This document shows, in pieces, positions 16,616 to 21,326 of a stretch of 41,102 nucleotides of DNA. Made by a program: the position numbers and the translations under genes. The notes under the pieces are model-generated. The model saw only the letters and a list, made by a program, of their open reading frames with translations. It was not told the DNA's origin and did not search any database. The stretch is from an uncultured Synergistales bacterium. Lineage in GTDB: Bacteria; Synergistota; Synergistia; Synergistales; Aminobacteriaceae. Positions within the stretch are counted from its first letter, which is position 1, and every line of letters begins with the position of its first letter. The DNA lies in NCBI GenBank assembly GCA_937897575.1, contig CALCQG010000081.1:1-41102 (forward strand), given 5' to 3'.

Positions 16616-16954
16616 TCAACAGGGTGGCAATGTGCTTCCACCCTTGATGTGTCCCCGGATTTCTCCTCCGGCGCATCGATGTTTCGTCCCTCTCGATGAG
16701 AGCGGAAGAAGAGCTGTGTGGCGAGCGCGTTCGATAGTTTTGGTCGGTGTTATGAGATAAACGTCGTCACGACGAATGAGTTATGTTATGTCCCGATTTT
16801 CTCTCGGAGAGGCGGAAAAAGATGACCGAGTTGTCGGCAGAGACGGGCTGCCGTTCCGTTCTCCGAGGTTCGGTCGTGTCTCATGCAAAGCCTGGTGGTT
16901 TGACGGTGACGGGGCGCGCGAAGAGCGCGGAAAAAAGAAGAGGGGTTGAGGGGG

Positions 16955-17956
16955 ATGGCGAAGCGCTTTTTTCTTGCGCTGTTGCTGATAGCGGCGATTT
17001 TTTCGATTCGCTGCACGGCGGAAGAACGGGTACACCTCAATATGGGCAGCACGTCGTCGTCGTCGGGTATCTATGCCTGGTGTGTTGCCGCAGCCAATGC
17101 CATCAACGCGTCCGGTACGGGGCTCTACGTCACGGTGGTCGAGAGCGGGGCGGGCATGGACAACCTCCGGAAGGTCCGGGACGGCGTCTTCGACTTCGCC
17201 CTGGCGGTGGACCTCCCGGGAACTCTCCAGCTCTACAAGGGCACGGATACCTTTCAAGGGGCCCCCTACCCGGAGATTCGGTGGCTCTTCCTGAGGAACA
17301 TCTTCGCAGACCGACTCTACGTCCTGAGGGATTCGGGCATCAGAACCTTCGGAGACCTGTCGGGGAAGCGCTTTTCCCCCGGCATCCCGGGTTCCACGTC
17401 CGCTACGCTCGTCATGCAGTACGATCGCCTTCTCGGGACGGGCATCCAGATGGTCCCGTCGACGCTGGGGGACGCCCTCAACGCCCTCAGGGAGCGGCGG
17501 ATAGTGGGGCTTCAGAAGTCCAGCGGACTGGATGCGATCGACGCCTCCCTCGTGGAGGTCAACCTGACGACGCCCCTCACGGTGATCGGCTACTCCGAGG
17601 AGGACGTGCGCCGGATCCAGGCCGTCCTTCCTCACATGACCTTCCTGCGGCGGGAGAAGGGGAGCATCGCCGACTTCCCCGACGTGGGCCCCATATGGGA
17701 GGAGGCGCCCATTGCCGGCGCAGTGGCGACGAGCGCCATGCCCGAGGACGTGGGCTACCGGATCGTCAAGGCCTACGTGGAGAAGTTCGATGAGATCGCG
17801 GCCGCCTACGGCCCGATCCGGGGCTTCGACCCGGTGCGGGATTACTTCGAACAGGCAGGTGAAGACGTGGTCCCGGCCCATGCCGGACTGATCCGGTACG
17901 CCAGGGAGCAGGGCATCCCCGTCCCCGACCGCTTCCTCCCGCCCGAATGCCGGTGA
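16955..17956 (+). CDS. TAXI-family TRAP transporter solute-binding protein
   Basis: Signal peptide, then MGSTSSSSGIY, ESGAGMDNL, DSGIRTFGDLSGKR and PAHAGLIRY motifs. Confidence 0.88.
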   Translation: MAKRFFLALLLIAAIFSIRCTAEERVHLNMGSTSSSSGIYAWCVAAANAINASGTGLYVTVVESGAGMDNLRKVRDGVFDFALAVDLPGTLQLYKGTDTFQGAPYPEIRWLFLRNIFADRLYVLRDSGIRTFGDLSGKRFSPGIPGSTSATLVMQYDRLLGTGIQMVPSTLGDALNALRERRIVGLQKSSGLDAIDASLVEVNLTTPLTVIGYSEEDVRRIQAVLPHMTFLRREKGSIADFPDVGPIWEEAPIAGAVATSAMPEDVGYRIVKAYVEKFDEIAAAYGPIRGFDPVRDYFEQAGEDVVPAHAGLIRYAREQGIPVPDRFLPPECR

Positions 17957-18008
17957 CTGAGGCGATTCTCCAAAGGACGTCACGTTCCAGGCTGCCCGGG
18001 GTGCCGTC

Positions 18009-19898
18009 ATGACCGCGGAGCGGTTTCCCGAGCAGGCGCGGCGGAGGGTTCTCTTCCTCCTCAGCCTCTCCTTCGCCGTATTTCAGCTCGCCGTCCCCAT
18101 CCTCTTCACGGGTTTTCTCGACATCCAGCTCAGGGCGGTTCACATCGCCCTTGGCTTGTCCGTGGCCCTCCTTTCCGCCCCGACGGGGAGATGGCGGGGT
18201 GCAACAGAGGGCGTCATGATCGCCGTCCTCGTCGCCGCCAACGTCAATGCCTACAGGGAGGCCCTCGCCATCTACATGGGGGGCACGCCGTCGGGCGGGT
18301 GGGACGTGATCCTCGGCGTCTGCCTGATCCTTGTGGTCCTCGAGAGCGCGCGCCGCACCGTCGGGCTGGTCATCCCCACCATGGTAGCCCTGCTGATCGC
18401 CTACATTTATTTCGGCGAGGCCTTCCCCGGAATATGGAAGCTGAAGGGCATCGGACTCCGCTTCGTCGTCGACTCACTCTACTATTCCCCCCTGGGCATA
18501 TACGGCAGCGTTACGGGCATGTCCGCCACGTTCATCGCCATGTTCGTCATCTTCGGCTCACTTCTGTCGTCCACGGGGGGAGGAAAGACGTTCATCGACA
18601 TCGCCATGGCCCTGACGGGTCGCTACCGGGGCGGGCCGGCCAAGGCGTCCGTGGTGGCGAGCGCCCTGTTCGGCAGCATCTCGGGCAGCTCCATCGCGAA
18701 CGTCATGGTGACGGGCAACTACACGATTCCCCTGATGATGAGAATGGGGTACAAACCCGAGTTCGCCGGCGCCGTGGAGGCCATCGCCTCATCCGGAGGC
18801 GGCATCACGCCGCCTCTGATGAGCGTGGCGGCGTTCATGATGGCCGAGTTTCTGGGCATCTCCTATTTCAGGATCATCGGATACGCGCTTCTGCCCTGCC
18901 TTCTGTACTACACGGGGGTCCTGAGCGGAGTCCACTTCCGGACCCTTCGCATGAACATCGGACGTCTGCCCGACGACGAGATCCCCCGATGGAGCAGCGT
19001 CCTGTCGGCGGGGAGATTGACGGGGCTCCTGATTCCCGTCGGCCTGCTCATCGGCCTGACCGCACGGGGGCAACCCCTTCAGCTGGCCGGTCTGTACGCC
19101 GTTCTGGCCACCTTGGCGATCTTCCTGGTGACGGGCGTCGTGACCGGACAGGGTGGTGAAAGGGTACGGTCCATCATCGCCGCTCTGGCCGACGGAGGCG
19201 GGGATGTGGCCCGGATCGTGCCCATCCTGGTCTCGGTGAGCATGCTGGTGAACCTCGTGGGGATAGCGGGCATCGCGCCCAAGATCAGCGGCCTGATCCT
19301 GCAGGTGGGGGACAGGAACCTCTACCTCTCGCTGCTTCTGGCGACCGTCGTCCCCTTCACCCTCGGGACCTCTCTCCCCGTGATCCCCACCTACGTGCTC
19401 TCCGTGTCCATTCTTATCCCTCCGCTCTCCCGGATCGGAATAGACCCCGTTGCCGCCCACTTTTTCTTCATCTACTGCGCCGTCCTCGGCGGTGTAACCC
19501 CGCCCGTCTGCACAACCGCCGTGGCGGCCGCGGGGATCGCGAAGGGGGACTGGCTTCTGACGGGGCTGAATGCCATGCGCCTCGGGGCCGTGGCCTTCAT
19601 CCTTCCCTTTTTCTTCGCCCTCAACCCCGCCCTCGTGGGACGGGCTCCGTTCTACGACGTTCTTCTCAGCGGTGGGGCGGCGTTCATCGGGACGATCGGC
19701 ATCGCCTACGGCCTCTTCAGCTATCGGCTCCCTCGCCTTCTGAACGCCGTACTCTGCGCCGCCTTCATCGTGGGGGGGACGCTGCTGCTCTTTCCCGGAG
19801 AACTGCTGCCGGCCATCGGCGTCGTGACAGTCTGCGCAGCCTTTATCACCGACAGGATGACGGAACGACGAAGGAGGCAAAACACCCCGCTGTCTTGA
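18009..19898 (+). CDS. TRAP transporter fused 4TM/12TM permease (DctQM)
   Basis: GGPAKASVVASALFGSISGSSIANV, AGAVEAIASSGG and VTPPV motifs; 629 aa, hydrophobic. Confidence 0.92.
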   Translation: MTAERFPEQARRRVLFLLSLSFAVFQLAVPILFTGFLDIQLRAVHIALGLSVALLSAPTGRWRGATEGVMIAVLVAANVNAYREALAIYMGGTPSGGWDVILGVCLILVVLESARRTVGLVIPTMVALLIAYIYFGEAFPGIWKLKGIGLRFVVDSLYYSPLGIYGSVTGMSATFIAMFVIFGSLLSSTGGGKTFIDIAMALTGRYRGGPAKASVVASALFGSISGSSIANVMVTGNYTIPLMMRMGYKPEFAGAVEAIASSGGGITPPLMSVAAFMMAEFLGISYFRIIGYALLPCLLYYTGVLSGVHFRTLRMNIGRLPDDEIPRWSSVLSAGRLTGLLIPVGLLIGLTARGQPLQLAGLYAVLATLAIFLVTGVVTGQGGERVRSIIAALADGGGDVARIVPILVSVSMLVNLVGIAGIAPKISGLILQVGDRNLYLSLLLATVVPFTLGTSLPVIPTYVLSVSILIPPLSRIGIDPVAAHFFFIYCAVLGGVTPPVCTTAVAAAGIAKGDWLLTGLNAMRLGAVAFILPFFFALNPALVGRAPFYDVLLSGGAAFIGTIGIAYGLFSYRLPRLLNAVLCAAFIVGGTLLLFPGELLPAIGVVTVCAAFITDRMTERRRRQNTPLS

Positions 19899-20068
19899 AC
19901 GGCACGCCCCTGCATACCCCTTTCGGAATGAACGATTCTCTCCCCGGACACCATAAATATACATACTATTCTTTCTACGGAAGTTTTATCCGACAAAACT
20001 CTCCTATCGTTGCAGCCATGCCCTTCGTCGTATTTTGCCGAGTCGGTGATTATACGTGCTTGTCCTGC

Positions 20069-20098
20069 TTGACAAAGGGAGAGAACGTGCTGTAGAAT
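20069..20098 (+). promoter_or_regulatory. Sigma70-type promoter
   Basis: TTGACA (20069-20074), N18 spacer, TAGAAT (20093-20098). Confidence 0.7.
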
Positions 20099-20110
20099 TT
20101 AACAGACAAC

Positions 20111-20124
20111 GGAAATTGACTTCC
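20111..20124. promoter_or_regulatory. NrpR-type operator GGAA-N6-TTCC
   Basis: cGGAA-ATTGAC-TTCC, 12 nt downstream of the -10 box. An nrpR-like gene lies 4 kb away. Confidence 0.45.
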
Positions 20125-20312
20125 TAATATATGCGTCGCGGATTCTTTCGCGAACGAACGGCTCTCCCGGCCCGTTTGTTTCCAGGCAATCACCCCCCTG
20201 TGGCGGAGCGTCGAGGGTCGTCGTAGGAGAAAAGAAGACCGTCCGAGAAGAATGCATCGCCTTCCTGCGAACGGTGCGTCCTCTGGACATCGGAGGAAAG
20301 GGGGAAAGACCA

Positions 20313-20405
20313 ATGGGTGCCAAGATATTCTTGCTTGCCATAGCTGTTTTTCTGGTGCTCGGGATTATCTTCAGCAATAAAAAGAAGCCCGATGAGAACG
20401 TGTAA
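20313..20405 (+). CDS. Small single-TM peptide, 30 aa (MGAKIFLLAIAVFLVLGIIFSNKKKPDENV)
   Basis: Purine-rich RBS GGAGGAAAGGGGG. 16-residue hydrophobic core followed by KKK. Promoter upstream, terminator directly downstream. Too short for the ORF track. Confidence 0.7.
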   Translation: MGAKIFLLAIAVFLVLGIIFSNKKKPDENV

Positions 20406-20421
20406 CACAACACGCCCCGTC

Positions 20422-20481
20422 CCGGTGGAGAAGAGTCTGGAGAGGTTTCCCCCTCGCCTCGTTTTCTCCACCGGTTTTTTT
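20422..20481 (+). terminator. Terminator after the 30-aa peptide gene
   Basis: CCGGTGGAGAA (20422-20432) pairs with TTCTCCACCGG (20464-20474), followed by T7. Confidence 0.75.
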
Positions 20482-20735
20482 GTCTAGAACCGAGGGGTCG
20501 GACATCCACGTCTCATTGTCCTCCTCGAAGAGCGAGGAGGGCTTCTCGGGTCGCCTCTCTGTGCGACCAGCAGCTGCGTTACCCCCCCGTCGTCGGTCGC
20601 CCGCGCTGCAGCCCTACGACGAACGAAGCGTCGACCTGATCGCGTGGGGAGCGATGCACCGGGTTGCTGTCCGCCCGTGATCCGCGAAGAAGGAACGGAC
20701 GTGCCATGTGCCAGGAGGAGGGAGGTGCGTTTCCC

Positions 20736-20846
20736 ATGAACCCGCCGCCGATGATGAACAAAGCGACGATCATATGGCTTGCCATTATGGCTGTAATCGG
20801 GGTCGTCATGATCACGATGAAGCTCAGGACGAAGAACAGAGGGTAG
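20736..20846 (+). CDS. Small single-TM peptide, 36 aa (MNPPPMMNKATIIWLAIMAVIGVVMITMKLRTKNRG)
   Basis: Strong RBS AGGAGGAGGGAGGT. Hydrophobic helix followed by the basic tail KLRTKNR. Confidence 0.7.
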   Translation: MNPPPMMNKATIIWLAIMAVIGVVMITMKLRTKNRG

Positions 20847-20930
20847 ATGCGCGGGAACGGGATGACCGGTCCCGGAGGTTTGGCTCGCTCTTCGACGCTC
20901 AGGGCGGGTTTTGAGAAAGGGATCTGGATG

Positions 20931-20975
20931 AAAAGCGCCCCCGGGCCGGAGTGTTCCGGCTCAGGGGCGCTTTTT
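20931..20975. terminator. Bidirectional terminator
   Basis: AAAAGCGCCCC-CGGGCCGGA-GTGT-TCCGGCTCA-GGGGCGCTTTTT between convergent genes. Confidence 0.8.
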
Positions 20976-21005
20976 CCACATGGAGTCCTTTCTTTCGCCT
21001 TCTGA

Positions 21006-21326
21006 TTACAGGTAGTCGCAGAGGTATTCGCAGGGCGTAGCACACTTGAACTGATAGGAGGAGTTCCCCGGAACGTCGAAGTCCTCCCCGGCCGTGACGG
21101 TGCGCCATTTCGTCTCGCCCGGGAGCAGTATCTCGGCCGTCCCGTTGGTGATGTGCATGACCTCCGGCTGGTCGGTTCCGAAGGTGTACTCACCCGGAAG
21201 GAAGACGCCGACGGTCTTCCGCGTGCCCTTCTCGTCGTACACCGTCCGGCTCTGGACCTTGCCGTCGAAGTAGATGTTCGCAAGCAGGCCGATCTCCACG
21301 TTCTTCAGGGTCTTCCCTCTGTTCAT
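21006..21326 (-). CDS. ppnP: Pyrimidine/purine nucleoside phosphorylase (DUF1255)
   Basis: ANIYFDGKVQSR, KTVGVFLPGEYTFGT, FDVPGNS and YLCDY motifs. Confidence 0.92.
   Translation of the reverse strand: MNRGKTLKNVEIGLLANIYFDGKVQSRTVYDEKGTRKTVGVFLPGEYTFGTDQPEVMHITNGTAEILLPGETKWRTVTAGEDFDVPGNSSYQFKCATPCEYLCDYL

Follow-up and report, generated by a model that had tools for sequence, protein, structure and literature searches.

The region between a TRAP-type permease gene and ppnP in an uncultured Synergistales bacterium carries two short open reading frames, ORF1 and ORF2, each predicted to encode one hydrophobic helix followed by a basic tail. Do the two peptides form a single system, such as the type I toxin pair or the transporter regulators proposed in an earlier note on this DNA, or are they separate genes that share an intergenic region? 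Our analysis favours, with moderate confidence, two independent microproteins, of which the ORF2 product would lie N-out/C-in with a conserved face packed on a larger membrane protein. In what follows, the window is the whole stretch of DNA that was analysed (41,102 nucleotides; contig C81 of this genome, labelled G000).

Organization of the locus

The features on which the analysis is based are the following.

18009..19898, plus strand: context, TAXI-type fused TRAP permease gene (TIGR02123)
20049..20075, minus strand: promoter-like sequence TTGTCA-15-TATAAT, back-to-back with the ORF1 promoter and having the palindromic −35 element in common with it
20069..20098, plus strand: sigma70-type promoter-like site, TTGACA-18-TAGAAT, 11/12 consensus matches
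20105..20312, plus strand: predicted ORF1 leader of about 208 nt, with the SD at 20293-20304
20313..20405, plus strand: ORF1, 30 aa, predicted single-helix membrane protein with a KKK tail; no homologue found
20422..20482, plus strand: intrinsic terminator 1, with an 11-bp outer stem and a U7 tail
20483..20735, plus strand: spacer or leader ahead of ORF2, with the SD GGAGGTG at 20721-20727 and a local hairpin pair at about 20500-20570
20736..20846, plus strand: ORF2, 36 aa, member of a conserved Synergistota microprotein family, predicted helix at residues 9-35
20931..20975, both strands: bidirectional terminator common to ORF2 and the convergent ppnP
21006..21326, minus strand: context, ppnP nucleoside phosphorylase gene

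Each of the two ORFs is preceded by a purine-rich SD. When the region was shuffled 300 times, only 2 of the shuffles held a promoter site with 11/12 matches anywhere. Terminator 1 has a z-score of −4.0 and a U-tail on the plus strand only, and the bidirectional terminator has z-scores of −6.0/−7.0 and U-tails on both strands. Genome-wide, 25 of the 2452 SD-led starts of 20-50-aa ORFs reach a hydropathy of at least 2.2 over 17 residues, and among all 2452 ORF1 ranks first and ORF2 seventh. The interval 19899-21005 holds two SD-led ORFs of this hydrophobicity, compared with none in any of 2000 dinucleotide shuffles (0/2000). The promoter, both ORFs, both strong RBSs and both terminators, all of which had been picked out in the earlier note, are real and beyond chance.

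The same note had divided the locus into two units with long structured 5′ UTRs, a description that was not confirmed. A scan of leader 2 for a sigma70-like consensus promoter found none, which leaves it a putative 5′ UTR of its own at most. Structure is largely missing as well, since neither whole leader folds better than its shuffles (z of +0.47 for leader 1 and +0.61 for leader 2), the exception being a single local 71-nt piece of leader 2 that folds above chance (z −2.9). A 12-bp complement between the 5′ and 3′ parts of unit 2 is present and goes unused in the predicted fold. No match to Rfam was obtained for the window at the gathering score, and the weak E-value matches correspond to terminator hairpins.

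ORF2 belongs to a conserved microprotein family

A search with the single ORF2 sequence gave matches in 22 of 200 other genomes; the match in one, lying in a long frame, was dropped as chance. A profile widened in two rounds to convergence, and built from 18 of the final 34 rows, places the family at 34 sites in 33 of 268 Synergistota genomes (E ≤ 1.1e-7; next match E 0.022). Rows from G175, G026 and G119 were left out as chance, and so were all matches at E > 0.02 in this profile search. Members are 27-36 aa in length with a single predicted helix, and they occur once per genome in 32 of the 33 carriers, the exception (G212) being a MAG with 7% contamination. Carriers fall in six genera of the organism's own bacterial family (g1, g3 with 9/10 genomes, g6 with 3/3, g7 with 4/4, g9 with 8/9 and g18 with 3/3), and the five carriers outside that family are four of the nine g25 genomes and the genome G236.

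In all 22 members that were extracted, a GGAGG SD precedes the start codon and a stop follows at 27-34 aa. Of the 300 pairs among 25 members, 299 have a pN lower than pS (means of 0.26 and 0.70), a comparison in which finding members by protein likeness itself pushes pN downward. Members group by genus on a weak 81-nt tree, with 9 label changes where the minimum is 7 and the shuffled mean is 19.2. As judged from these sequence comparisons, ORF2 is a conserved, single-copy gene with purifying selection. The conservation and dN/dS check that the earlier note had called for comes out in favour of ORF2.

The conserved core of ORF2 begins at Met7 (20754). The upstream start at 20736 fits the SD spacing and is supported by the relative P0022, which has a similar N-terminal extension. 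Structure prediction yields one helix (pLDDT 86), and Trp8 in the core is invariant across three families of the order.

The peptide is of no recognised family, as had been supposed. Only 20 of 1.84 billion representatives match ORF2, and all are the ORF2 peptide. Comparison with Pfam, NCBIfam, PHROGs and the PDB gave no match above curated cut-offs, only compositional scores; the best ESM Atlas scores (0.84 and 0.79) were to clusters without a name. A fold search with the single helix gave no match, and the peptide was not found in the phage, plasmid and viral-contig collections. None of the papers listed in literature searches on Synergistota small proteins and type I toxins concerned these peptides, which small-ORF catalogues may nevertheless contain. 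By sequence, ORF2 is a family in no catalogue consulted, and it belongs to a known class of microproteins.

An extended −10 promoter lies 122-170 nt upstream of the gene in 21 of 30 ORF2 homologue loci. A Fur-like box matching 13/14 consensus positions occurs in 4 of 32 loci, ahead of the ORF2 homologue and close to its predicted start site. All four (L019, L035, L036 and L092) are from g7, and the box is not a family-wide feature. In g3 and g9 loci (e.g. L010, 1640-1870), a sigma28-like site follows the ORF2 terminator, and the gene behind it encodes 63-70 aa with no Pfam match. A flagellar link for ORF2 was also considered and rejected, as there is no flagellin in G000, G005 and G101, all of which carry ORF2.

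ORF1 is likely a lineage-specific microprotein

No homologue of ORF1 was found. The lone match in the 200 other genomes lies within a 544-aa frame and is due to chance, and a search of 5.8 billion proteins returned ORF1 alone. Phage and plasmid collections gave no match, nor did an exact degenerate pattern in viral contigs. An entry of the ESM Atlas is identical to ORF1 and probably derives from this same genome. No ORF1-like gene was found downstream of TRAP orthologues or in the 15 stretches of relatives' genomes that surround TRAP and ORF2. ORF1 is likely a lineage-specific microprotein, and relatives may exist in sister species.

One 174-nt contig of an RNA library spans 20245-20418, including ORF1, with one synonymous change at codon 19. 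It is a weak hint of expression because it comes from one run that does not show strand or level, and in which DNA carry-over is possible. The absence of contigs over ORF2 or ppnP from RNA run X17 carries no weight either way.

The two peptides are unrelated in sequence, as the earlier note had stated. ORF1 as an ORF2 paralogue was rejected, since 56 of 235 generic hydrophobic N-termini match its score on the ORF2 profile, hhalign gives a probability of 41%, and the DNA likeness (23 nt, 74%) is not significant. The peptides do not constitute a two-peptide system, because ORF1 has no homologue and is not an ORF2 paralogue. Nor do the ORF2-homologue loci that were read support the proposed pairing, as none of them has an ORF1-like partner.

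Type I toxin features

The proposal of a new type I toxin pair made up of the two ORFs has some basis in design. Each encodes a small hydrophobic protein with one transmembrane helix and a polar C-terminus, and size, helix, tail and flank distance fit the criteria given in the excerpted text of PMC2887945. That text also names tandem copies and antisense RNA as hallmarks of such loci (PMC2887945), and the mRNAs are described, in the part of PMC6733600 that concerns them, as sequestering the SD, at times by a far-downstream 3′ anti-SD. No sign of these RNA hallmarks was found in the ORF2 family. SD accessibility equals that of controls (0.22 vs 0.24, p = 0.86; 31 loci and 81 control genes), and a 3′ anti-SD with z < −2 was seen in none of 30 members. 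Promoter-like sites on the antisense strand are present in 7 of 31 loci, where their positions are scattered and none is conserved, and 16 leaders of the family yielded no consensus pair. No above-chance complement to either mRNA was found elsewhere in the genome.

ORF1 and ORF2 are not tandem repeats, and tandem or multicopy paralogues, which are common though not universal among such toxins, were not found. Nor did the mobile-element collections contain ORF2. In g25, moreover, the ORF2 homologue closes a two-gene unit. Vertical inheritance alone does not exclude a toxin, because type I loci can also be inherited vertically, according to the excerpts of PMC2887945. Overall, a toxin pair is highly improbable, and the toxin status suggested for ORF2 is not borne out.

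A separate proposal takes only ORF1 to be a type I toxin, an orphan one checked by a 3′ anti-SD and an RNA from the divergent promoter, with ORF2 an unrelated neighbour. Consistent with this, ORF1 is lineage-specific, encodes 30 aa and has a leader of about 208 nt, and the loop of terminator 1 (20446-20460) contains a 15-nt, 87% complement of its SD. The duplex has a z-score of −2.2 and was equalled in 13 of 500 shuffles and by 1 of 120 control genes. Pairing of this far-downstream kind is among those described for type I mRNAs in the relevant part of PMC6733600. However, about 6% of control genes reach an anti-SD z < −2, and the full-length fold of ORF1 contains the terminator but no pairing between anti-SD and SD. 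Although SD accessibility was 0.01-0.08 in one folding window, occlusion was ordinary under a uniform protocol, in which 125 of 200 controls were as occluded or more so.

The divergent promoter-like site (20075-20049) has a perfect TATAAT, and a weak terminator-like site at 19902-19887 lies in line with it. Together they could yield an RNA of about 165 nt ending near 19887. The 15-nt spacer is short and atypical, however, and pairing of this RNA with the mRNAs was no better than for shuffles (6/60 and 9/60 shuffles). The 3′ anti-SD and the back-to-back promoter are toxin-like features of ORF1, and both are borderline. ORF1 also lacks a tandem copy and was not matched in the phage, plasmid and viral-contig collections, and we regard an ORF1 toxin as unlikely.

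Gene neighbourhood and candidate partners of ORF2

Within its own bacterial family, ORF2 usually neighbours genes for an SprA-like protein, an M20 hydrolase, pgm and a NapH-like Fe-S membrane protein. In this genome the ancestral neighbours pgm, HPPS protein, FAH and NapH-like are present on contig C85 without ORF2, and the position of ORF2 in the window therefore looks secondary, the result of relocation. No neighbour gene is common to all carriers. A link to the SprA-related neighbour was rejected, as that gene was not found in this genome.

The earlier note had identified the adjacent transporter as DctQ plus DctM, which is corrected here to a TAXI-type fused TRAP permease, and had suggested its regulation by one or both peptides. 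In favour of this, 23 of the 33 genomes with ORF2 have an orthologous permease, which occurs in the six genera of the bacterial family that carry ORF2 and lies 4.6-20 kb from ORF2 in eight other genomes. Direct adjacency is unique to this genome, however, and outside the bacterial family the distributions are discordant, with 13 genomes having the permease without ORF2 and 5/5 ORF2 carriers lacking the permease. In addition, the gene next after the permease is PEP-mutase/isocitrate-lyase-like in 21 of 23 readable loci, and a small membrane ORF follows it in none (0/23). The adjacency of TRAP and ORF2 seems to have arisen as an older gene neighbourhood collapsed, and regulation of the transporter is very unlikely.

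In the relative G017 (L178; compare 16946-19898 of the window), the genes around the transporter are PrpD-like, aconitase-like and PEP-mutase/isocitrate-lyase-like, which hints at a tricarboxylate substrate. In this genome the lyase-like gene no longer follows the transporter.

Another possible partner is a Na+-pumping decarboxylase (beta plus gamma/delta), of which ORF2 would be an extra membrane subunit. In 4 of 9 g25 genomes (L192-L195) the ORF2 homologue directly follows an orphan OAD_gamma (gamma/delta) gene ahead of a single terminator, and the two genes share one pattern of presence and absence; decarboxylase beta subunits occur in 41 of 45 hand-picked genomes. The g25 pairing is confined to one genus, though, and therefore counts as one event, and there is no OAD_gamma match in this genome. 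A stand-alone decarboxylase beta was rejected as the partner because the distributions do not match: the stand-alone second beta gene is missing in the carriers G008, G068, G153 and G236, and 15 non-carriers have it. The solved pump, moreover, is beta3-gamma3 plus alpha in the portion of PMC7274780 that describes it. Overall, a decarboxylase subunit is quite improbable.

Stand-alone Na+-decarboxylase beta genes without alpha or gamma neighbours are present in many Synergistota (L143, 466-1587, in G000:C112; L142, L147, L148 and L150). In G182 the orphan OAD_gamma gene of g25 is split in two pieces, and a g25 genome without the ORF2 family carries an SD-led 42-aa hydrophobic ORF (L150, 226, in G029:C69).

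The NapH-like gene occurs in 31 of the 33 carriers. It is co-oriented with ORF2 within 0.14-3.7 kb in 16 of them, and it is located directly downstream of the ORF2 homologue in three g6 genomes. This co-occurrence inside the bacterial family is confounded by kinship and shared contigs. The gene is also found in 37 genomes without ORF2, none of the 20 NapH-like loci outside the family has an ORF2-like gene alongside (0/20), and two near-complete carriers (G120 and G008) lack it. The two genes are unlinked in this genome and in g25. By gene context, the most promising candidate for a partner of ORF2 is the NapH-like 4Fe-4S membrane protein, although a doubtful one.

Proposed roles of the two peptides

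The reading that we prefer treats ORF1 and ORF2 as unrelated genes, likely joined by rearrangement. The positive-inside rule holds that a basic segment stays inside, and the basic tail after the helix would accordingly be expected to place the ORF2 product N-out/C-in. A binding surface is suggested because conservation is position-specific and the Trp is invariant across three families of the order; the peptide may bind a larger membrane protein through the conserved residues N2/W8/L9/I11/M12/I15 and act as its accessory or regulatory subunit. AcrZ, MgtS and KdpF are likewise single-pass accessory or regulatory microproteins. Small proteins with such roles are an established class that includes CydH/CydX, CcoQ/CcoS and MgrB, as set out in the excerpted text of PMC12648545. 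Against this preferred reading, ORF2 has no detected promoter here and lies behind a strong terminator.

It is also conceivable that the peptides have no specific partner and act as bulk membrane or stress microproteins, or that ORF1 is a young, barely functional ORF. The lack of a neighbour common to all carriers and of any ORF1 homologue would fit, but the invariant Trp and the position-specific conservation speak against a partnerless ORF2, and the complete, beyond-chance signal set of ORF1 speaks against a barely functional one. We consider these options improbable.

A bolder form of the partner model can be stated, although we rate it as speculative and improbable too. ORF2 would provide the NapH-like Fe-S protein of Synergistota with a small subunit that is otherwise missing, or would switch its activity; in this lineage it would have been relocated behind a newly arisen ORF1 and be expressed via terminator read-through, with the terminator loop able to pair with the upstream RBS.

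Comparison with known systems

Three known kinds of element resemble these peptides. Type I toxins (TisB/ShoB/ZorO, Ldr/Fst, Hok, AapA) share their size, hydrophobic helix, polar C-terminus and long spacer before the start, and, for ORF1 only, the possible 3′ anti-SD. They differ in that the present locus shows no tandem duplication, antitoxin candidate, conserved SD occlusion or conserved leader fold, and in that the peptides were not found on mobile elements and have no Rfam or Pfam match at cut-off. The LPXTG anchor segment (TIGR01167) is weakly scored by 17 of 22 ORF2 members (best E 0.007) because a helix plus a basic tail is common to both, which makes the match compositional; unlike that segment, ORF2 members have no LPXTG motif and no passenger domain.

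The closest likeness is to the stand-alone single-pass accessory or regulatory microproteins, among them AcrZ, MgtS and KdpF and also CydH/CydX, CcoQ/CcoS and MgrB, the latter as described in the excerpts of PMC12648545. They and ORF2 have in common a length below 40 aa, one helix, a basic tail, single-copy conservation within a clade and, in most relatives of ORF2, a promoter and terminator of their own. ORF2 differs from them in having no sequence match to any such protein in Pfam or NCBIfam, and it displays the characteristic features of a conserved single-pass protein of <50 aa with purifying selection. Conserved microproteins have often been found to act as subunits of membrane complexes or as their regulators, and no Synergistota microprotein of this kind was met in the literature searched. 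ORF2 adds to a known class and is not a new kind of system, the reading as a toxin pair having failed. As a single-copy gene of common digester bacteria it makes a defined target, with ranked partner candidates. If the NapH-like reading were true, electron flow in digester bacteria that ferment amino acids would have a microprotein, ORF2, as a control point.
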